From positions 16,184-80,183 of the forward strand of contig JADZFR010000007.1 of the NCBI GenBank assembly GCA_020849795.1: DNA of 64,000 nucleotides. Reading direction: 5' to 3'. Both the position numbers and the translations under genes were made by a program. Numbering within the stretch: position 1 is the stretch's first letter; each line of letters starts with the position of its first letter. Below the pieces are notes generated by a model. That model was not told the origin of the DNA. It made no database searches and was given only the letters and a program-made list of their open reading frames with translations. The stretch is from Planctomycetota bacterium. Lineage in GTDB: Bacteria > Planctomycetota > UBA8742 > UBA2392. Positions 44,447 through 64,000 of the stretch are shown piece by piece.

Positions 44447-44522
44447 AGGGGTGTGGTGTCAGTTGGTAGCACGTCCGGTTGTTACCCGGAAAGTGAAGGT
44501 TCGAGTCCTTCCGCCCCTGCCA
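44447..44522 (+). tRNA. tRNA-Asn (anticodon GUU)
   Basis: 76-nt cloverleaf folded by hand. 7-bp acceptor AGGGGUG/CGCCCCU (one G-U). Anticodon loop UUGUUAC. T-arm GAAGG-UUCGAGU-CCUUC. Discriminator G, encoded CCA. Confidence 0.85.
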
Positions 44523-44650
44523 GCAACCAGGTTAGTAACCGAGGGCTCTACACGCAGCGACGATCGCTCCGCTTACGCCATTCGCTGTTCGCCTTCGGGC
44601 GAACAACGAACGGCTGCTACGCGTTCCAAACAGCGCGCTGCGCTGTTTGG

Positions 44651-44678
44651 AGGTTCGAGTCCTTCCGCCCCTGCCAGC
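44651..44678 (+). repeat. 28-bp direct repeat of the tRNA-Asn 3' end (T-arm + acceptor 3' strand + CCA); first copy at 44497..44524
   Basis: Exact 28-nt identity AGGTTCGAGTCCTTCCGCCCCTGCCAGC, 127 bp after the intact tRNA. Confidence 0.75.
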
Positions 44679-44787
44679 CGTGCCGGCGCCACAGGCCAGG
44701 CGGCTGTTGTGCAGCAACCAACATCGTGCTCTTTTCGCACTTGCTCGATCTCCGGCCCTCATATACTGCGAAGGGCTTCGGACCTTC

Positions 44788-46260
44788 ATGCTCAAGCAGA
44801 TCTTCGCGGATAACGCCACGCTGACCTGGACCCTGATCGCCATCGACTGGCTGATCCGGGTCGCGCTTGGCATCCGCATCATCATGCGCCGCAGCTCGAC
44901 CGGCTTCACGCTCGCGTGGCTGACTGCGGTGCTGTTGTTGCCGGTGCTGGGCGCGATCATCTACCTGCTGCTGGGCGAGCGCAGACTGGGAACTCGCCGT
45001 GCCAAGCGCATCGAAGAGCTGCGCAAACCCTATCGCGCGTGGCTGGAAAACTTGGCGAAAGACTTTCCGGTCGAAGCAGCCGCGCTGGGCTCGGGCGCTG
45101 ACATGATCCGGCGCCAGGCGCGGGGCACGGTGGGTGTGCCGACTTTGCCCGGCAACACGCTGCAACTGATTGACGATGCGGAAGCGTTCTTTGACCACCT
45201 GATTGCCGATATTGAAACCGCAACCTCCAGCGTTCACCTTGAGTTCTACATCTGGCTTCCCGGCGGCCGCGCCGATGACGTTGCCAACGCACTGACCCGC
45301 GCCGCCGCGCGGGGCGTGAAGTGCCGCATCCTGGTGGACGACGTCGGCGGCGCAGACCTGGTCGGCTCGGACACGCAAGCCATGCTTGAGAAAGCCGGAG
45401 TGCGCGTAGTTTCGATGCTCAAGGTAGGCCTGCTGCGCTCCATGTTCGCCCGCGTCGACTTGCGCAACCACCGTAAAATTGCCGTGATTGACGGCGTCAT
45501 CGGCTACACCGGCAGCCAGAACATTGCAGACCCCAAGCTGTTCAAGGCGCAGGAAGGCATCGGCGAGTGGCTCGATGCCATGGTGCGCATGACCGGCCCG
45601 GCTGTCGAGGCGTTGCAGGTGACACTGCTTGCGGACTGGGAGTTCGAGACCTTCGAGGGCATCGAAAAGAACGTGGCTGATTTCGATGTCAAGCGCAGCG
45701 CCCCTGTCGGCGATGCCCTGGTGCAGGTCGTGCCCTCGGGTCCCGGCCTCAGCCAGCTTGCAATCCAGGAGTTGATCCTGACCGTCATCTACGCAGCCCA
45801 CACCGAACTGGTGCTGACGACGCCCTACTTCATACCCGATGACGCGATGATCAAGGCGCTGTTGTCCGCAGCCGCCCGCGGTGTAGATGTGCAGCTGATG
45901 TTGCCGCGCTACCCCGACAGCCGCGTCGTCAAGTGGGCCGGCGAGAGCTACTTTGAAGAACTGCTTGAGGGCGGCGTCTGCATTTGCCGCTATGAGGGCG
46001 GAATGCTGCACACCAAAGCGATTGTGATCGATGGGCAGATCGCAATGTTCGGCTCGGTCAACCTGGACATGCGCAGCTTCTACCTGAATTTCGAGATCTC
46101 GATCGTCGTCTACAACGGTCTGTTCGCGCAAAAGGTGCGCAGTCTGCAGGAACACTATCGGCAAAGTTCGCAGAAACTTGACCTTGAGCGCTGGCGCTCA
46201 CGACCGGTAATGCTGCGTTTTGCACAACAAACCGCACAGTTGCTGAGCCCGCTGCTTTGA
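44788..46260 (+). CDS. cls: Cardiolipin synthase
   Basis: Two N-terminal TM helices and two HKD motifs (NHRKIAVIDG; LHTKAIVIDGQ...GSVNLD). Confidence 0.85.
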   Translation: MLKQIFADNATLTWTLIAIDWLIRVALGIRIIMRRSSTGFTLAWLTAVLLLPVLGAIIYLLLGERRLGTRRAKRIEELRKPYRAWLENLAKDFPVEAAALGSGADMIRRQARGTVGVPTLPGNTLQLIDDAEAFFDHLIADIETATSSVHLEFYIWLPGGRADDVANALTRAAARGVKCRILVDDVGGADLVGSDTQAMLEKAGVRVVSMLKVGLLRSMFARVDLRNHRKIAVIDGVIGYTGSQNIADPKLFKAQEGIGEWLDAMVRMTGPAVEALQVTLLADWEFETFEGIEKNVADFDVKRSAPVGDALVQVVPSGPGLSQLAIQELILTVIYAAHTELVLTTPYFIPDDAMIKALLSAAARGVDVQLMLPRYPDSRVVKWAGESYFEELLEGGVCICRYEGGMLHTKAIVIDGQIAMFGSVNLDMRSFYLNFEISIVVYNGLFAQKVRSLQEHYRQSSQKLDLERWRSRPVMLRFAQQTAQLLSPLL

Positions 46261-52274: not shown

Positions 52275-52351
52275 CCCTTTTCCCAACCCTTTGGCCCTGC
52301 GCGCGTTAAACTCGTGCGGCCGCGTGCCGGCCCGGGCGTATTGAGGTGACC

Positions 52352-54055
52352 ATGTCGCAGTTGCTCGCCAAGTACTTGATTGAAGAGCGCGGGATCCGCC
52401 AGGACAAGGTGGACCACCTTCTCCAACGCGCCAAAGAATCCGGCGAACGCATGGATTCAGCGCTGGTCGAGCACGGCATTCTCGCGGAAAACGAGATGCT
52501 GGAATTCTACGCCTCGCAGCTCGGGTTGCCGTACGAAAACGAGCTGGCCAAATACAAGCCCAACCCGCGCTTTGCCGAGAAAGTCCCCGTCGGGTTCGCG
52601 CGCCAGTACAACCTGGTCGGCCTTGACGAAATTGCCGGCATCCTGCGCGTCGCCACCTGCCGCCCGCTTGACCTGTACCCGATGGACGAGCTTGCGGGCC
52701 TGCTGCACCAGCCGATTGAGCCGGTACTGGCCCCGCGCGTCGAAATCAGCGAGCTGATCAACAAGACCTACGCCCAGAAAAGCGAAGTCAGCGACGAGGT
52801 TGAGCGCGAACTCGAAGCTGACGGCATGCTCGAGACCGAGTTCGAATTCGACGCCAAGACCGACATCCTGAACATCGCCACCGCGGCGCCGATCATCAAG
52901 CTGGTCAACACGATCTTCAGCCAGGCGCTGCGCATGCGGGCCAGCGACATTCACATCCAGCCCAGCGAGCACAAACTGCAGATTCGGTACCGTGTAGACG
53001 GCGTGCTGTACGACGTGATGACCCCCAGCAAGAAGCTGCAGGACGCCATCATCGCGCGCATCAAGGTCATGGGGCGCATGGACATCGCCGAGCGCCGCCT
53101 GCCCCAGGACGGCCGGGCCAGCATCAAGATGGGCGACGCCGAGATCGACTTGCGTATCAGCACCGTGCCCACCAACTTCGGTGAGCGCGCGGTGATTCGT
53201 ATCCTGGAAAAGAACACCAAAGAGTTCCGGCTGTCCGACATTGGCTTCATGAAGGACAACGAGGACATCTTCAATACTTACCTGGAATACTCCAACGGCA
53301 TCATTCTGCTGACCGGCCCCACCGGCAGCGGCAAGACCACCACGCTGTACGCCGCGATCGGCAACATCAACCGGCCGGACATCAACATTCTCACGATCGA
53401 AGACCCGATCGAGTACCAGATGCCCGGCGCCAGCCAGGTCGAGGTGAACGAGAAAAAGGGCCTGACGTTTGCCCGCGCGCTGCGCAGCTTTGTGCGACAG
53501 GACCCCGACGTCATCCTGGTCGGCGAAATCCGCGACCTTGAAACCGCGCAGATTGCCATCCAGTCCGCGCTGACGGGCCACCTTGTGTTCAGCACCCTGC
53601 ACACCAACGACGCGCCCAGCACCGTCACGCGCCTTGTGGACCTTGGCGTTGAGCCGTTCCTGGTCTCAAGCTCGGTCATCTGCGTCGTCGCCCAGCGCCT
53701 TGTGCGCCGCATCTGCAAAGAGTGCAAGGGCGAGTACGTGCCCGACGAACGCGAACTCAAGGGTTTTGACCTTTCGCTGGACGACCTCGAGCACGGCCAC
53801 CTGTGGCAGGGCCGCGGTTGTGAAGCCTGCTTCAAGACCGGTTTCACGGGCCGGACGGCGATTCACGAGATTCTGCCGATCAGCGAACGCATCAAGCAGC
53901 AGATCGTGGAAAAGCAGCCGGCAGGCGAAATCAAGCGCTGGGCAGTAACCCAGGGCGGCCTGCGCACACTGCGCATGGACGGCATGCGAAAAGCCATGAT
54001 GGGCCAGACCACGCTGGCAGAAATCGCAACCACAACCCAACGCGACACGTTTTAG
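52352..54055 (+). CDS. gspE: Type II secretion / type IV pilus assembly ATPase, GspE/PilB family
   Basis: T2SSE N-domain. Walker A LLTGPTGSGKTT, Asp box, Walker B VILVGEIRD, His box, tetra-Cys motif CKEC...CEAC. Confidence 0.85.
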   Translation: MSQLLAKYLIEERGIRQDKVDHLLQRAKESGERMDSALVEHGILAENEMLEFYASQLGLPYENELAKYKPNPRFAEKVPVGFARQYNLVGLDEIAGILRVATCRPLDLYPMDELAGLLHQPIEPVLAPRVEISELINKTYAQKSEVSDEVERELEADGMLETEFEFDAKTDILNIATAAPIIKLVNTIFSQALRMRASDIHIQPSEHKLQIRYRVDGVLYDVMTPSKKLQDAIIARIKVMGRMDIAERRLPQDGRASIKMGDAEIDLRISTVPTNFGERAVIRILEKNTKEFRLSDIGFMKDNEDIFNTYLEYSNGIILLTGPTGSGKTTTLYAAIGNINRPDINILTIEDPIEYQMPGASQVEVNEKKGLTFARALRSFVRQDPDVILVGEIRDLETAQIAIQSALTGHLVFSTLHTNDAPSTVTRLVDLGVEPFLVSSSVICVVAQRLVRRICKECKGEYVPDERELKGFDLSLDDLEHGHLWQGRGCEACFKTGFTGRTAIHEILPISERIKQQIVEKQPAGEIKRWAVTQGGLRTLRMDGMRKAMMGQTTLAEIATTTQRDTF

Positions 54056-56795
54056 AAACAATCTCACGAACGTCGGAGCAACCAGCGCAGCCGCGCAATG
54101 TTTGGGTCAGGCGTGCTTTGGGTGCCCTCGGGGGAGGGGGCCCGGGCGCCGACTTGCGTGCCCCGGCTTCTCCCGCCTGACATCTAAACAAATTGGCAAG
54201 CTTCCGTTCACCAATTCGCGAAGCCGCACAGGCAAATCGGCCTCTTCTTTGCGTTGATGGAACCCCTTGTCGGGCGCGGCCCGCACGTCGGCTCTTTCGC
54301 CATCCAGCGAGCCAAGCGAAGGATCGGGCGGAGCAAGCCTGATCCCCTTTCTCAATTTGTCGGGGCCACACAATGCAAGCGTGTACTAGACTTCGATGCG
54401 CGATGTCTTCCAGATTTCCCCTACCAAGGCTATCAGCAGCCCGTGCCGAGCCTCAATGGCCTTTGCGTTCCAAGAGGGAAACGCTTGCAACTTCTCATTG
54501 ATTCGCATGATAGAGGTGTCCTTGCCGATGTTGGACAAACCGGCCAGACTGCGGGTCAAGTAGTTGCCGCTGTTGCAGTACTTGGCCCGCTTGGCCTCGT
54601 AGAAGTCGTTGCCCGCGACGATGTTGATGGGTTTCTCCAGCAAGGTCAGGTTGCCGAGCCGGTTCTTGTAGTCGTCGTACCCAGCATCTGGATTCTCGGC
54701 AACCCACTTGCCGCGCAGTTCCTCTTTTGGTTTGTCCGGCAGAATGTGTTCGATCTCTAGCTTGGTGAACGGTTCCAAACTACCCAGCGTCTTTTGGCCG
54801 CTGAAAGCCATCTCGACGTGCTGCGTCAGCCGCGCCAGAAAGTAGCGCGTCCGGTACTGCTGCATCGAGTAAAGAGTGAAGCGTCGGAGCGCATCGACCA
54901 GTTCCTGCGACTTTTTGGACATGTTCGTCTCGAAGCGCTCAGAGATGAACTCATTGATCTGCACCTTCTGCTTCACGGGGTCGGTAACTGCGGCAATTGC
55001 ACGCAGCTCGTCCGCCCATTGGGAAAAGCTCCGCTCCAGATCCTTGGTCGGCGTCTTGGTAAAGATGTAGTAGAAAAGAAAGCTCTCCAACTGCGTCACA
55101 AAGTGGTCGAACAGAGGCTTTGGGAAGCTAGCCGCAGCCATGAGCAGGACGTAGTGCAAACTGAAGGCTCCGCCCGCCAGCCGCTTCAAGCTGTCCATCG
55201 CAAGGCTTGGCTTGCCGTCGTTGCCAAGCCCATTCGAGAACGCGAGATAGTGTTCTACGCTTCGGTGAATCTTTCGAACAAACTCGAACGGCTTGCCTGC
55301 GAAACCGCACAGCGCCGCGTTCTCCTTGTCCACGAACCAGTCGTAGATTTCGTCCTCGCGCACCACGGCATCACCCCGCTCGTTCTTGATAACGTAGTTC
55401 GCCATCAGGAAATAGCGCAGAAAGCGCAGCGGCTTCTCTTTCTCTGTTTCCAGCGGCTTGGTGATATTCTTCCACTCGTCCTTGAGCCGCGTGAACTGAC
55501 CCTGCTTCACCTGTTTGAACAGTAGATTCTTAAGTAAGTCCATCGGATTCAGGCCGACACCGCGCTCATTAATGGTCTCAAAAATCTTCAGGGCGCTGCT
55601 CACGTCCGTGGAGATCTGAATGAACACCACGTAGTTCGCCAAGTAACCCCAATACTTCTTCAGCTTGGGTGTGTCCTGGTAGTTGTCCTTCAGGTAGCCG
55701 TGGAGGGTGCTATAGGCGTTCACCAGATTTTCCAGCGACCCGAAACTGGTGATACCCGCCGATTGAATGCCAGCCCGCACGGCTTGAGGGTCGGCGTCGA
55801 GTTCGACTAGCTTGGCGATGACCTCGCCCGCATTCTCGTAGCGAGGTTCTAGCTTCAAGCTGCATCGCGTTTCCCCGTCGCTATCGGTATAAGTAGTCGA
55901 AATTAGGCCGCTGACTGTTTGACGCTGTGGCTCGTGCTGAAACAGATGTTTGAGGGCGCAGAGTAGCAGGAAGAACGTAGTAAGGCGCTGCTGACCATCG
56001 ATCACGTCGTAGTGACCTTTTTGGTCGGTCGGCGACACCAGCACGGTGCCAATGAAGTATTCCCGAGGCGCGCCCGCATTGATCTGCTCGTCGATGTCAT
56101 CGAGCAACTGATGCACTTCCTTATCTGTCCAGACGTACTCGCGTTGGTAATCCGGCACGATGTAGAAGCACTCCCTGAAAGCTTCCTCAATGCTGTATTT
56201 GTGGTTTTCGATACGTGCCATGGTATTGTCCTACTGCGAAGTCTAGATTTCACTAGTACGACCGCGTTTGAAATCGGCGTTACTGCCGTCCCGGAGATGC
56301 TTCTAGCGCTTCACGCACGAGAACTAAAGAGGCACCAAGGAGAGTGGTCAATGGGGCTGTTCAACCGGGCAGGTGGGTGACAGTTTAGGCCGGCCCTAAC
56401 GATCGAATTTGGGTGGCTCCTGCTGAGATGCTGTAATCCGTGCGAGCGGACGTGCCAACGTATTCTAAGAGCCTCTAGATCGAACCGTTGCTGCGACTTC
56501 CGACTTCGCATGACCTGTGTCGATCGGGTCGGAGTGCGGCCCATCGGCCACTGTTGCAGCCGGGCGTCCGCCGGGTGGGATGCGTGACGCCATGAGCCGA
56601 GGCACGTAATTCGGCATCGCTGGGTCGCGAGCGACCACGGCGCATAAGCTAAGGCCAGCGCCCCAAGTTTACCCCTGAGCGCCCAAGGAAAACCCCTTCC
56701 TGTTAGAAGCAACCACGGATGGTGTCGCTCCGGTCTTGCCAATGGCTTGGGGCTGGGCACCATGCCATTGCCGCCGCGCTGGTCTCTGAAGAGAG
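54056..56795. other. Lower-GC islet (~55% vs ~67%) carrying a single defence gene; likely horizontally acquired
   Basis: Visible compositional shift. Contains a 330-bp and a ~570-bp non-coding flank on either side of the GmrSD gene. Confidence 0.6.
54386..56221 (-). CDS. GmrSD-family type IV (modification-dependent) restriction endonuclease, DUF262 + DUF1524
   Basis: N-terminal DUF262 with DGQQR motif (YDVIDGQQRLTT). C-terminal DUF1524 His-Me finger (EIEHILP...NLTLLEKPINI). 611 aa. Confidence 0.8.
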   Translation of the reverse strand: MARIENHKYSIEEAFRECFYIVPDYQREYVWTDKEVHQLLDDIDEQINAGAPREYFIGTVLVSPTDQKGHYDVIDGQQRLTTFFLLLCALKHLFQHEPQRQTVSGLISTTYTDSDGETRCSLKLEPRYENAGEVIAKLVELDADPQAVRAGIQSAGITSFGSLENLVNAYSTLHGYLKDNYQDTPKLKKYWGYLANYVVFIQISTDVSSALKIFETINERGVGLNPMDLLKNLLFKQVKQGQFTRLKDEWKNITKPLETEKEKPLRFLRYFLMANYVIKNERGDAVVREDEIYDWFVDKENAALCGFAGKPFEFVRKIHRSVEHYLAFSNGLGNDGKPSLAMDSLKRLAGGAFSLHYVLLMAAASFPKPLFDHFVTQLESFLFYYIFTKTPTKDLERSFSQWADELRAIAAVTDPVKQKVQINEFISERFETNMSKKSQELVDALRRFTLYSMQQYRTRYFLARLTQHVEMAFSGQKTLGSLEPFTKLEIEHILPDKPKEELRGKWVAENPDAGYDDYKNRLGNLTLLEKPINIVAGNDFYEAKRAKYCNSGNYLTRSLAGLSNIGKDTSIMRINEKLQAFPSWNAKAIEARHGLLIALVGEIWKTSRIEV

Positions 56796-57176
56796 GTGTC
56801 TATGTCGTCTACGCAACTGGACCGATTTGCCGCTGCTGCCCTTACCGGGTTGCTGGCGCGCCGTGAATGGGACGATGTCGAAGAACTTGCCGCTGATGCC
56901 TTTCGCATCGCGCGCGCCATGATGGCCCAGCGCCTGAAACAGCAGGAAATGCCCGACAGCGACGTGATGCTCGGCGACGTGCTGAACGAGAAAGTCGAGG
57001 TGCTTGACCTGCCCCTGCGCATCACCAAGAAGCTTGAGGGCCTGGGCATCAGCACGGTCCGCGACCTCACGCTCACGACCGAAAAAGCCATCCGCTTCAC
57101 CGGCCTCGCCGACGAAAGCATCAGCGAAATCAACCAGAGCCTGCACCGCCTCGGACTGACACTCAGCCCGCAATAG
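56796..57176 (+). CDS. Small protein with RNA polymerase alpha-CTD-like helix-hairpin-helix domain
   Basis: C-terminal LDLPLRITKKLEGLGISTVRDLTLTTEKAIRFTGLADESISEINQSLHRLGL resembles RpoA alpha-CTD. Confidence 0.45.
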   Translation: MSMSSTQLDRFAAAALTGLLARREWDDVEELAADAFRIARAMMAQRLKQQEMPDSDVMLGDVLNEKVEVLDLPLRITKKLEGLGISTVRDLTLTTEKAIRFTGLADESISEINQSLHRLGLTLSPQ

Positions 57177-57188
57177 CCGGCGCAGCGG

Positions 57189-58160
57189 CTACGCGGGCGG
57201 CGCCGGTGGCGGGCCGCCGATGCCCGTCGGGATGCCTTGCCCCAGCCGCGTGTTCAGCACTTTCAGCGCCTTCCTGATTTCATCCAGTTTGCCGTCAATC
57301 AAGTGCACTTCATCCTCGAGTGTCACCTTGTCCGAGACACGCCGCTTGGCCAGCGCCTCGTTTTCGGCTTCGGCCTGCATCTCGTTCATGCCCGACATGA
57401 TCACGCCGATGAACAGGTTCAGTATCACCATTGCCCCCGAGATGATGAACGACACAAAGAACAGCGCCCCCAGCAGCGGGTGAGCCGTTGAAACCCGCGT
57501 GAAGCCGTGGGCCTGCGCCCAGGCGTCCATCTCCGGGTTGTAGCCGTAGTGGTCGCTGCCATACATCTGGATGTACATCAGGTCGGTCCAGTCCTCGAGT
57601 GTGACACCCCGGAACAGCGACAGCAGCGCGCGTTGCAGGTCGCCAAAGTGCCACGGGTCGTTCGCGCCGAAGAAAAAGACGGCGGCTGCGGCGAAAATGT
57701 AGAAGTGAAGGCCCAGCAGCACGACCACATAGCCCATCGACGGGATGCTCTTTAGCAGCGCGCCCACGATCAGTTGCAGGCGCGGCAGCGCCGTCACAAG
57801 CCGGAACACACGCAAGATGCGCACCAGGCGCAGCACCGGGATCAGCGCGGCGGTGCTTTCGCCCATGGGGATGAAGCAGGCGGCGACGATCACGAAGTCG
57901 AAGATGTTCCAGCGGTCCTTGAAGAAGTGGTGCGGCTTGGGCCACTTGGCGATCAGCTTGAGCACGATTTCGACTGTGAAGATGCCGAGGATGATCTGGT
58001 CAAGCAGGTGAATGATGAAGTGGTGATCGGCATAGAACTGGTGATAGGTTTCAATGCCCACGACCACGCCGGCTAAGACAATCACGCCAATGATGAACGC
58101 CTGGAACCACTTGTGTTCGGTAACGCGCTTGGCCAGCTTGACCATGGCAATGCTCCACAA
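57189..58160 (-). CDS. Voltage-gated cation channel, NaChBac/BacNav family, with acidic filter TLEDWTD
   Basis: Six TM helices. S4 with Arg every third residue (LRLVRILRVFRLV). Pore FRGVTLEDWTD. C-terminal coiled coil. Confidence 0.8.
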   Translation of the reverse strand: MWSIAMVKLAKRVTEHKWFQAFIIGVIVLAGVVVGIETYHQFYADHHFIIHLLDQIILGIFTVEIVLKLIAKWPKPHHFFKDRWNIFDFVIVAACFIPMGESTAALIPVLRLVRILRVFRLVTALPRLQLIVGALLKSIPSMGYVVVLLGLHFYIFAAAAVFFFGANDPWHFGDLQRALLSLFRGVTLEDWTDLMYIQMYGSDHYGYNPEMDAWAQAHGFTRVSTAHPLLGALFFVSFIISGAMVILNLFIGVIMSGMNEMQAEAENEALAKRRVSDKVTLEDEVHLIDGKLDEIRKALKVLNTRLGQGIPTGIGGPPPAPPA

Positions 58161-62631: not shown

Positions 62632-64000
62632 ATGGCTGAAACCGGCTCCGAGCTCAAGCGCGCCCAAAGCGTGCAGATGATGATGCTGCCCGATGCGCCA
62701 CAGGTGTCGGGCGTCGAGCTTGCGTGCAGCTACCGCGCGTGCGACATGCTGGGCGGCGACTTCTACGACTTCATTTACATCGACGCCTGGCGCCTTGGCA
62801 TCGTGATCGCCGACGTCTCGGGCCACGGCACCGCAGCAGCGCTGGTCATGGCCGGCGCCAAGAAGGCCCTTCAGATCTATGGCCGCGACACCTCGCCCCG
62901 CGCAGCCATGCTTGCCGTCAATGAAAGCCTGCGCGGCGACATTCCGCGCGGCATGTTCCTGTCGGCGATCTATGGGGTGTTTGACATCCGTACGCAGGCC
63001 CTGACGTTCGTGAGTTGCGGCCACAACCCGCCGCTGTTGCTGCGCGCCGGCCAGCTCAAGAGCACTTGGGGGCAGGGCAACGCGCCGGTGCTCGGGATTC
63101 TGCCGTCGTCCGAGATGCAGAAGCACATCAGGGAAGTCCAGGTGCAGCTCCAGCCCGAAGATGTCTTGCTGCTCTACACCGACGGCATCACCGAGGCCTT
63201 TGACAGCCAGCGCGGCATGTACGGCGAAGACCGCCTGCTGGCCCGACTTCACGGGCAGGTGAATACGCCCGCCGCGCAACTGCTGAAGCTGATCCAGGCC
63301 GACGTCGATGCGTTCCGCGCCGGCGCCATCATCTCCGACGACGAAACCATGCTGGCCCTGCGCGTGCAGGAAAAGCCGCGCGACCCCGTGCCGCTGCGCG
63401 CACTCAGTGGCGGGACCGAGGGCCTTCCACAGTTCACCACCGAACTCGTCGGGCGCTCGCGAGACCTGGCCGAAACCACACGCCTGCTGCGCCAGAAGGA
63501 CGCAACCGTCATCACGCTGATCGGCCCCGCCGGCGTCGGCAAAACCCGCGTCGCCGCCGAGGCCGCCCGCAGCCGTGCCGCTGATTTTCCTGGCGGCGTC
63601 TTCTTCATCGACCTGCAAAGCGCGACCGGCGTGGGCGAGGTTTGCCGGCTGGTCGGTGCAACCCTGAAACTAAGCGACGATGACGCGAACCTGGGCATGC
63701 GCATCGCCAACGCTCTGCAGAGCCGCGCCAGCGCCGGCGGCCCGGTACTCGTGATTCTGGACAACTGTGAAGGTGCCGGCACGGCAGCGGCATTGTGCAT
63801 CAAGGAGTGGCGCCAGCGCGTACCCGATTTGAAGGTGCTTTGCACCAGCCGCGTCGCCTTGGGCGCGCCGGGTGAAGTCTCGCTCACGATCAAGCCTTTG
63901 GCGCTGCCGCGCATGCACACCGGCGGCAAAGAGTCGCAACTTTTGCCCGCGATTACCGAGGCGCCGGCGGTCGTGCTGTTCACGCGGCGGGCACAACAGA
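62632..64000 (+). CDS. PP2C/SpoIIE-type Ser/Thr phosphatase fused to STAND-type P-loop NTPase (partial, continues beyond window)
   Basis: PP2C motifs DVSGHGTAAALVMA and LLYTDGITEA, then GPAGVGKTRVA Walker A. No stop codon before the window end. Confidence 0.7.
   Translation, partial: MAETGSELKRAQSVQMMMLPDAPQVSGVELACSYRACDMLGGDFYDFIYIDAWRLGIVIADVSGHGTAAALVMAGAKKALQIYGRDTSPRAAMLAVNESLRGDIPRGMFLSAIYGVFDIRTQALTFVSCGHNPPLLLRAGQLKSTWGQGNAPVLGILPSSEMQKHIREVQVQLQPEDVLLLYTDGITEAFDSQRGMYGEDRLLARLHGQVNTPAAQLLKLIQADVDAFRAGAIISDDETMLALRVQEKPRDPVPLRALSGGTEGLPQFTTELVGRSRDLAETTRLLRQKDATVITLIGPAGVGKTRVAAEAARSRAADFPGGVFFIDLQSATGVGEVCRLVGATLKLSDDDANLGMRIANALQSRASAGGPVLVILDNCEGAGTAAALCIKEWRQRVPDLKVLCTSRVALGAPGEVSLTIKPLALPRMHTGGKESQLLPAITEAPAVVLFTRRAQQ

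Follow-up and report, generated by a model that had tools for sequence, protein, structure and literature searches.

The locus described here raises two questions: what a solitary nuclease gene of low GC content is doing directly 3' of gspE in a Planctomycete chromosome, and how it came to be there. We analysed a stretch of 64,000 nucleotides (referred to below as the window) of a Planctomycetota bacterium, taken from contig JADZFR010000007.1 of the assembly GCA_020849795.1. The gene in question occupies positions 54386–56221 on the minus strand and was identified by open reading frame (ORF) calling, Pfam and PADLOC; it is intact and encodes a GmrSD-family (HEC-06/DndI-like) nucleoside triphosphatase (NTPase)–nuclease of 611 amino acids, the same length as that of its homologues. 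Based on its architecture, its relatives and its position, the gene is most probably an acquired, functional defence nuclease of the GmrSD family, and we propose that it is a single-gene defence cassette that entered a variable site directly 3' of gspE by horizontal transfer.

Concerning the protein itself, an earlier note made from the DNA sequence had described a 611-residue DUF262(DGQQR)–DUF1524 protein, and the ORF, both Pfam domains and the motifs bear this out. The DUF262/GmrSD_N (ParB/Srx-like NTPase) domain covers residues 17–235 (nt 55517–56173, minus strand; Pfam PF03235, 7.3e-40, 137.6 bits with a cut-off of 33.2, profile positions 11–199 of 199). It carries the motifs YQR at residues 25–27, DGQQR at 75–79 (nt 55985–55999) and, at 73–86, VIDGQQRLTTFFLL, which represents the (I/V)(I/V)DGQQRLTT motif characteristic of the family. 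The DUF1524/GmrSD_C His-Me finger nuclease domain covers residues 437–598 (nt 54428–54913, minus strand; Pfam PF07510, 9.2e-21, cut-off 23 bits). Its motifs are IEHILP at 490–495 (nt 54737–54754), LGNLTLLEKPIN at 522–533, which is one residue longer than the published pattern, NDFYEAKR at 538–545 and W…W at 584–604. Every motif block by which Machnicka et al. 2015 (PMC4619093) defined the GmrSD family is thus found in the protein, which places it in that family.

The family search returned 18,668 cluster representatives at E ≤ 1e-3, and the window protein was aligned with 93 of them (26–87% identity). The residues that are invariant among these 94 sequences are all kept here, both in the N-terminal part (Q26, R27, W31, G58, D75–R79 of DGQQR, N218, G221 and L224) and in the C-terminal part (E491, H492, N533, K544 and R592). 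Compared with its best homologues the gene is under purifying selection, the ratio of nonsynonymous to synonymous divergence (dN/dS) being 0.09–0.10. The AlphaFold2 model computed from the same alignment has a predicted local distance difference test (pLDDT) score of 94.2 and a predicted template modelling (pTM) score of 0.85; it replaced a model from a shallow alignment (32 sequences, 84–88% identity), for which pLDDT was only 40.6. In the model, the N-terminal domain is built of strands and helices, the middle is helical and the C-terminal region has a beta-beta-alpha arrangement. The linker (residues ~240–475) is almost wholly helical, and a linker of 200–400 alpha-helical residues is typical of the family. 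According to PADLOC, the best model is ‘Orf5’ (9e-84, full length), and the HEC-06 models match over nearly the full length (4e-69 for PDLC04157, 1e-68 and 8e-60), PDLC04157 covering residues 3–564 and profile positions 6–534 of 558. The mREase_IV (8.5e-14) and SspE (2e-18) models match the N-terminal domain only, and NCBIfam contains no match for the nuclease.

The position of the gene was compared with 12 related Planctomycetota loci recovered by GspE scans (GspE 84–99% identical). The nuclease gene is absent from all 12 of them, two of which have a 99% identical GspE. On its left it is flanked by a T2SSE-family (GspE/PilB-like, MshEN-containing) ATPase gene (52346–54055, plus strand; Pfam T2SSE, 1e-135) and on its right by a small gene for an RNA-polymerase-alpha-CTD-like protein of 126 amino acids (56796–57176, plus strand; Pfam RNA_pol_A_CTD, 2e-6). 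The latter gene is found 3' of gspE in ten of the related loci, and the contigs of the remainder end earlier. In loci L003 and L004 the site between the two genes is empty (48-bp and 94-bp spacers), which is the gspE/alpha-CTD adjacency that the earlier note had predicted for relatives without the insert. That note had also placed the nuclease between gspE and a channel gene; the gspE side stands, but the alpha-CTD-like gene adjoins on the other side, and the channel gene lies beyond it at 57189–58160.

The closest relative (locus L001, JADJRK010000001.1) is collinear with the window from 42 to 62 kb, with 84–92% DNA identity, and the single large exception is the nuclease segment. Homology to L001 (~92–95% around the segment in blastn) ends at 54051 in the last codons of gspE, where even the stop codons differ (TAG vs TGA), and restarts at 56720, 76 bp before the alpha-CTD-like gene. 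The lineage-specific variable segment defined in this way by blastn is 2664 bp long (54056–56719). Its left border is the stop codon of gspE, its right border is the native region 5' of the alpha-CTD-like gene that is conserved with L001 (56720–56795, plus strand), and it takes in nearly all of both non-coding flanks of the nuclease gene.

The nearest homologues are found in another phylum. The best 120 of 4867 matches consist of the identical source entry and 119 others with 84–88% amino acid identity, and among them the only Planctomycete entry is the source itself. The named carriers in this set are Burkholderia, Xylophilus, Xenophilus, Acidovorax, Dechloromonas, Ottowia, Pseudomonas aeruginosa, Stenotrophomonas, Lysobacter and Salmonella. 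Two genetic contexts were seen. The first is the gene order HTH(XRE; helix-turn-helix) – M78 peptidase – GmrSD – OST-HTH – DUF2924 – large serine recombinase – Bro-N/AAA_24, which is that of a prophage-like integrative element of Burkholderiales or other betaproteobacteria. The second is an integrative and conjugative element (ICE) of P. aeruginosa, in which the homologue (86% identical) lies beside TraG and DtrJ genes and a cluster of methylase, SNF2 helicase and S8 peptidase genes. Relatives of the nuclease are also carried by 38 IMG/VR viral contigs. Since the gene is absent from the 12 relatives, the site is empty in two of them and the homologues belong to proteobacterial mobile elements, the gene is foreign to its Planctomycete host. 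The earlier note had named two outcomes that would speak against it, namely the same gene at the same site in relatives, with native GC content, and a profile search lacking DUF262/DUF1524; what was found is that no relative has the gene at this site and that both domains are recovered by their profiles.

The DNA homology between the window and the proteobacterial loci (80–85%) is limited to the ORF and extends at most 11 nt 5' of the ATG. The proteobacterial copies show the same pattern among themselves: that of a Burkholderiales prophage-like element (L014:8001–9836) and that of the P. aeruginosa ICE (L015:8001–9836) are 90% identical in DNA exactly from start to stop codon, and their flanks are unlike. 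As all comparisons restrict the homology to the ORF, the gene behaves as an ORF-sized cassette. In the betaproteobacterial elements of loci L010–L014 and L022–L025 the nuclease homologue comes directly after genes for an XRE-type HTH protein and an M78 (ImmA/IrrE-like) peptidase on the same strand, and the OST-HTH gene is usually next. This arrangement may be a regulatory module; it was not carried into the Planctomycete.

Activated sludge is a typical habitat of several of the named genera that bear homologues, and a wastewater origin is suggested by the names of some of the most closely related metagenome-assembled genomes. Judging from these genera and names, co-occurrence of donor and recipient is plausible.

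The composition of the gene is what first drew attention to it. The mean GC content of the window is 62.7%, that of the nuclease ORF 54.7% and that of the whole islet as first delimited 56.6%. The windowed-GC check proposed in the earlier note confirmed that no other stretch of the same size (1836 bp) in the 64 kb has a GC content as low as that of the ORF, which lies about 4 standard deviations under the sliding-window mean. That note had contrasted 55% with a background of 67%: the dip and the ORF value hold, but the background was set too high, and the dip amounts to ~8 points, not ~12. Only the ORF is truly low, as the flanks are near background (61.5% for the 330 bp on the gspE side, 59.6% for the 574 bp on the other). 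The GC contents at the first, second and third codon positions (GC1, GC2 and GC3) are 0.55, 0.35 and 0.74 in the ORF vs 0.645, 0.452 and 0.797 in the window genes (n = 39 likely genes). GC1 and GC2 are each ~1.7 standard deviations under the host genes, and ~78% of the GC deficit of the ORF falls on these two positions. The dip therefore reflects mostly amino acid composition; the protein is rich in Lys, Asn, Tyr, Phe, Ile and Glu. The codon-usage check, which had also been proposed, found nothing atypical in synonymous usage: the ORF is the 7th closest of 39 to the pooled usage of the window, i.e. host-like.

The non-coding DNA on both sides of the gene is unique sequence. The stretch 3' of the nuclease gene, up to the gspE stop, measures 330 bp (54056–54385), and that on the 5' side 498 bp (56222–56719), or 574 bp if the native part up to 56795 is included. 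The 498-bp stretch presumably holds the nuclease promoter. A decayed partner gene had been suspected there; six-frame peptides of the flanks gave no Pfam match even at E ≤ 1, and tblastn searches of the islet with 18 proteins encoded as neighbours or cargo at the loci of homologues and relatives returned nothing above noise (E ≥ 3), so that no remnant of such a gene, or of a previous occupant of the site, was found. In the flanks there was also no Rfam match and no relevant terminator-like site, and the RNA fold z-scores were unremarkable (−1.68 for the 498-bp and +0.17 for the 330-bp flank). No copies of the flanks turned up in the rest of the window, the 63 retrieved loci, plasmids or phages, or in two exact-word scans of viral contigs. 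The flanks had been called unusually long; their sizes (330 and 574 bp) are correct, but 330 bp is unremarkable and 574 bp is only at the long end, gaps of 300–500 bp between ORFs of at least 150 amino acids being found elsewhere in the window.

Concerning mobility, the genes from 40 to 62.6 kb encode no integrase, recombinase or transposase domain, in agreement with the earlier note, which had seen no integrase or transposase. The only tRNA gene is that for Asn at 44447, 9.5 kb away, and the longest perfect flanking repeats are 10–11 nt, a size expected by chance. A 10-nt inverted repeat (54386–54395 and 56237–56246) was considered and set aside as a chance occurrence, being one of three perfect 10–11-nt pairs in 3.1 kb, with its upstream arm absent in the homologues. 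Of the classical marks of an integrative element, low GC and absence from relatives are thus seen here, while an integrase, a tRNA or att target and direct repeats are lacking. Recombination near the ends of the ORF, with no dedicated integrase, would be the likely route of entry.

A number of points weigh against the reading of the gene as an acquired defence nuclease. The window copy branches just outside the clade of the 119 homologues, and its synonymous divergence (dS) from the best homologues is 0.67–0.90, compared with a dS of ~0.24 between the flanking genes and those of L001. Because dS is larger than in the flanks and the branch lies outside the clade, the donor is not among the sampled sequences, and neither the direction nor the timing of transfer is strictly proven. 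GC3 is 0.84–0.86 in the proteobacterial copies vs 0.74 in the window gene, which points to a donor outside the sample or to partial amelioration of the gene and leaves the timing uncertain. The GC dip alone is weak evidence of foreignness; the case is carried by synteny and phylogeny, and the lesson for method is that composition flagged the gene and could not by itself prove its foreign origin. The two flanks together make up 828 bp of non-coding DNA (330 + 498) with no match in the sequences searched. A search of the upstream flank found no sigma-70-like promoter, the sigma-70 consensus being uninformative for Planctomycetes. Lastly, DndI and SspE sense the phosphorothioate (PT) of the host and act on unmodified DNA, so that family membership alone does not imply a type IV enzyme.

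The last point bears on the mechanism. We suggest that the N-terminal DUF262 domain, with its DGQQR motif, binds and hydrolyses NTP, and that the C-terminal DUF1524 His-Me finger (E491–H492, N524, N533), joined to it by the long helical linker, cuts DNA. The enzyme would survey DNA, and NTP hydrolysis would gate the nuclease so that phage DNA is nicked or cleaved and host DNA is spared. An anti-phage role is suggested by analogy with the validated HEC-06, and we infer that the gene is expressed in its host. A nuclease that travels alone between hosts would have to recognise something intrinsic to the invaders, for which modified bases are an economical guess. Pfam scans of the neighbours show that the gene is solitary. 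As there is no modification partner here or beside the close mobile homologues, attack on modified bases is the most economical rule; seen at the level of the family, the chances appear about even that the enzyme is modification-dependent (type IV). For the GmrSD family this would mean NTP-stimulated cleavage dependent on modified cytosines (glucosylated hydroxymethylcytosine, hydroxymethylcytosine or 5-methylcytosine).

The alternative is a PT-sensing effector like DndI or SspE, which would nick DNA lacking the PT mark of the host and would rely on dndBCDE or sspABCD elsewhere in the genome. The structural comparisons lean this way. DndI (9JFL) is the best solved match both by family profile against the PDB sequences (4.9e-48, full length; SspE ~1e-26, and BrxU much weaker at 7e-8) and by Foldseek against the PDB (E 3e-16, template modelling (TM) score 0.60–0.62, full length), with SspE next (E 8e-14). 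‘Orf5’, the best PADLOC model, may also point this way, and the PT-sensing Y25 of DndI aligns with Y25 of the window protein. However, this tyrosine is part of the general DUF262 YQR motif and is therefore non-discriminating, the identity to DndI is only ~16–17%, and the DndI/SspE-like fold is superfamily-wide, so that the fold does not decide the mechanism. None of the 42 ORFs of the window matched a Dnd or Ssp model of PADLOC (E ≤ 1e-5), and the 84–88% identical homologues on prophage-like elements, the ICE and viral contigs have no PT module within 4–8 kb, i.e. no PAPS-reductase, DndD or DndE-type neighbours. HEC-06, moreover, functions alone in an E. coli lacking restriction–modification (R-M) systems. 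A PT-sensing role is therefore unlikely.

It is likewise improbable that the gene is a silent passenger, intact but neither expressed nor useful in this host and awaiting decay. In favour of it, neither a promoter nor a terminator could be recognised in the flanks, the signal of purifying selection comes mainly from branches that lie outside this host, and the window copy has 25 private substitutions at positions that are otherwise at least 95% conserved. None of these substitutions falls in a motif, however; the ORF is full-length with every invariant residue of the family kept, and a Shine–Dalgarno-like AGGA is retained 7 nt 5' of the ATG. The codon usage is near that of the host, and promoter scans with the sigma-70 consensus say little in Planctomycetes.

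We consider it very unlikely that the nuclease is ancestral to the Planctomycete lineage, was lost or replaced in the sampled relatives and was exported to the Proteobacteria. Its place outside, rather than nested within, the clade of 119 homologues, its host-like codon usage and a dS of at least 0.67 to every homologue would fit such a history. Opposed to it are the absence of the gene from all 12 related loci, including the two with a nearly identical GspE, the two empty sites, the lack of any other Planctomycete among the best 120 of 4867 matches, the low GC1 and GC2 relative to host genes, and the location of the rest of the clade on mobile elements. An assembly artefact, i.e. a chimeric metagenome contig with a proteobacterial gene, comes to mind because the source is a metagenome-assembled genome and the relatives of the gene belong to another phylum, but can hardly be the explanation, since both junctions lie in one contig with syntenic Planctomycete genes on each side, the DNA is only ~85% identical to any sampled sequence and differs from the proteobacterial copies in GC3, and the 828 bp of flanks match no proteobacterial context, so that two precise joins would be needed.

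The site at which the acquired nuclease gene lies has different contents in different relatives. In this window it holds the GmrSD-family nuclease; in L001 and L002 an LRR/PDZ and 417-residue set; in L005, L007, L019 and L021 a SpoIIE–STAND–TPR gene of native GC; and in L006, L008 and L020 a protein of 807/838 amino acids with no assigned function. The three genomes with a 99% identical GspE have three contents (the GmrSD gene; LRR, 417-residue and capsid-like proteins; PDZ and 417-like proteins), and the more distant relatives have the empty site, the SpoIIE–STAND gene or the 807/838-residue protein. In L001 the site is occupied by 4.2 kb of unrelated DNA (L001:11708–15909) with three minus-strand ORFs. 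Based on this variability, and on the start-to-stop homology with which the gene moves, precisely as an ORF, between the Planctomycete, the Burkholderiales prophage-like element and the P. aeruginosa ICE, we tentatively suggest that the gspE/alpha-CTD junction could serve this Planctomycete clade as a hotspot at which cassettes are exchanged independently of an integrase. Core defence hotspots have been described in Pseudomonas, Vibrio and E. coli; if the suggestion were true, the junction would be their Planctomycete counterpart and would point to a gene-sized recombination mechanism. The variable site is not termed a defence hotspot here, as the other cargos are not recognisable defence genes: they have no PADLOC match, and the only Pfam domains in them are LRR, PDZ and SpoIIE/STAND/TPR. 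The defence islet of the earlier note comes down to one gene.

Some further features of the site and its surroundings were noted. The alpha-CTD-like protein consists of that region only, the NCBIfam rpoA models are far under their cut-off, and the gene is conserved 3' of gspE throughout the clade. The three ORFs at the L001 site encode an LRR protein of 572 amino acids, a protein of 417 amino acids with a homologue in L002, and a protein of 326 amino acids that weakly matches the major head protein entry phrog_212 of PHROG (E 6e-7) and may be a phage or encapsulin-like remnant. At 62653–63909 (plus strand), running off the end of the window, lies a paralogue (36% identity, E 6e-66) of the 1142-residue SpoIIE phosphatase–STAND NTPase–TPR cargo protein. 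Directly 3' of the tRNA-Asn gene (44447–44522) there is a second small indel, where the window has ~275 bp and L001 ~60 bp (to 44797). The PADLOC models mad2, mad3 and mad8 (MADS) are each matched by 2–3 window ORFs (best 2.4e-25), and DrmC models by one, probably the PLD-domain protein at 44647–46260; these are likely generic domain matches and not defence systems.

Taken together, a nuclease gene often carried by viral contigs and by the prophage-like elements and ICEs of Proteobacteria has entered the chromosome of a Planctomycete on its own, with breakpoints defined to the base and no mobility gene nearby. What the earlier note had read from the sequence remains valid in its domains, its foreign insert and its solitary gene; its background GC figure, the weight it placed on GC and its decayed partner do not. 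As an instance of defence-gene transfer between phyla, of a known single-gene kind and into a variable site of the chromosome, it is clean but ordinary. To our knowledge phage defence in Planctomycetes is little studied, and the gene is a useful candidate for its study, although it overturns no expectations. It also shows that annotating every DUF262–DUF1524 protein as a modification-dependent type IV enzyme is unsafe.

The known systems with which the nuclease can be compared fall into two groups: GmrSD and BrxU attack modified DNA, while DndI and SspE spare self DNA that is marked with PT and attack unmarked DNA. The founding architecture is that of GmrSD of E. coli CT596 and Eco94GmrSD, which carry out type IV restriction of DNA with glucosylated hydroxymethylcytosine (glc-hmC; PMC4619093). 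All four motif blocks and a stand-alone gene on mobile DNA are shared with it; the window protein nevertheless belongs to a distant branch, which the mREase_IV model reaches weakly and over the N-terminal domain alone, and the glc-hmC specificity is that of the founding enzyme. BrxU (PDB 7P9K; PMC8565348) likewise combines DUF262 with DUF1524 and is an NTP-regulated nuclease in phage defence, but the 7P9K match (7e-8) covers N-terminal residues only and is not among the significant Foldseek matches. Of the features of the BrxU type, no BREX genes are found among the neighbours and the RLFDS motif is absent from the window protein.

SspE (PDB 6JIV/7DRS), the second-best structural match, has a DUF262 NTPase and a C-terminal HNH-type nuclease as well; it differs in its length (771 amino acids), in a global TM score of 0.22–0.37 and in needing phosphorothioation by SspABCD, for which no model was matched in the window. 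DndI of Salmonella (PDB 9JFL; PMC11662687) senses PT through the tyrosine Y25, works with IscS–DndBCDE and is co-transcribed with dndFGH. It resembles the window protein in the layout of DUF262 with HNH/DUF1524, in length (596 vs 611 amino acids) and in the DGQQR and YQR motifs, and differs from it in sequence, as the low identity shows, and in context, as neither the window nor the surroundings of the close homologues contain dnd genes.

HEC-06 (Hma-embedded candidate 6; Payne et al., bioRxiv 10.1101/2024.01.29.577857) is a validated stand-alone GmrSD-like anti-phage protein, whose defence requires the DGQQR and EH residues and is exerted alone in E. coli without R-M systems. It shares with the nuclease of this window the single, partner-free polypeptide of DUF262 (DGQQR), helical linker and DUF1524 (EH…), closeness being judged here by the PADLOC profile models. 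HEC-06 was found embedded, and the 86% identical homologue of P. aeruginosa, beside its methylase/SNF2 cluster, resembles that context; the window gene differs in that it is embedded in no system and has a Planctomycete host. Overall, the PT-sensing DndI is nearer to this branch of nucleases in sequence and fold than either BrxU or the founding GmrSD, though all three are remote from it; HEC-06 is the closest validated relative of the branch and DndI its closest solved structure.

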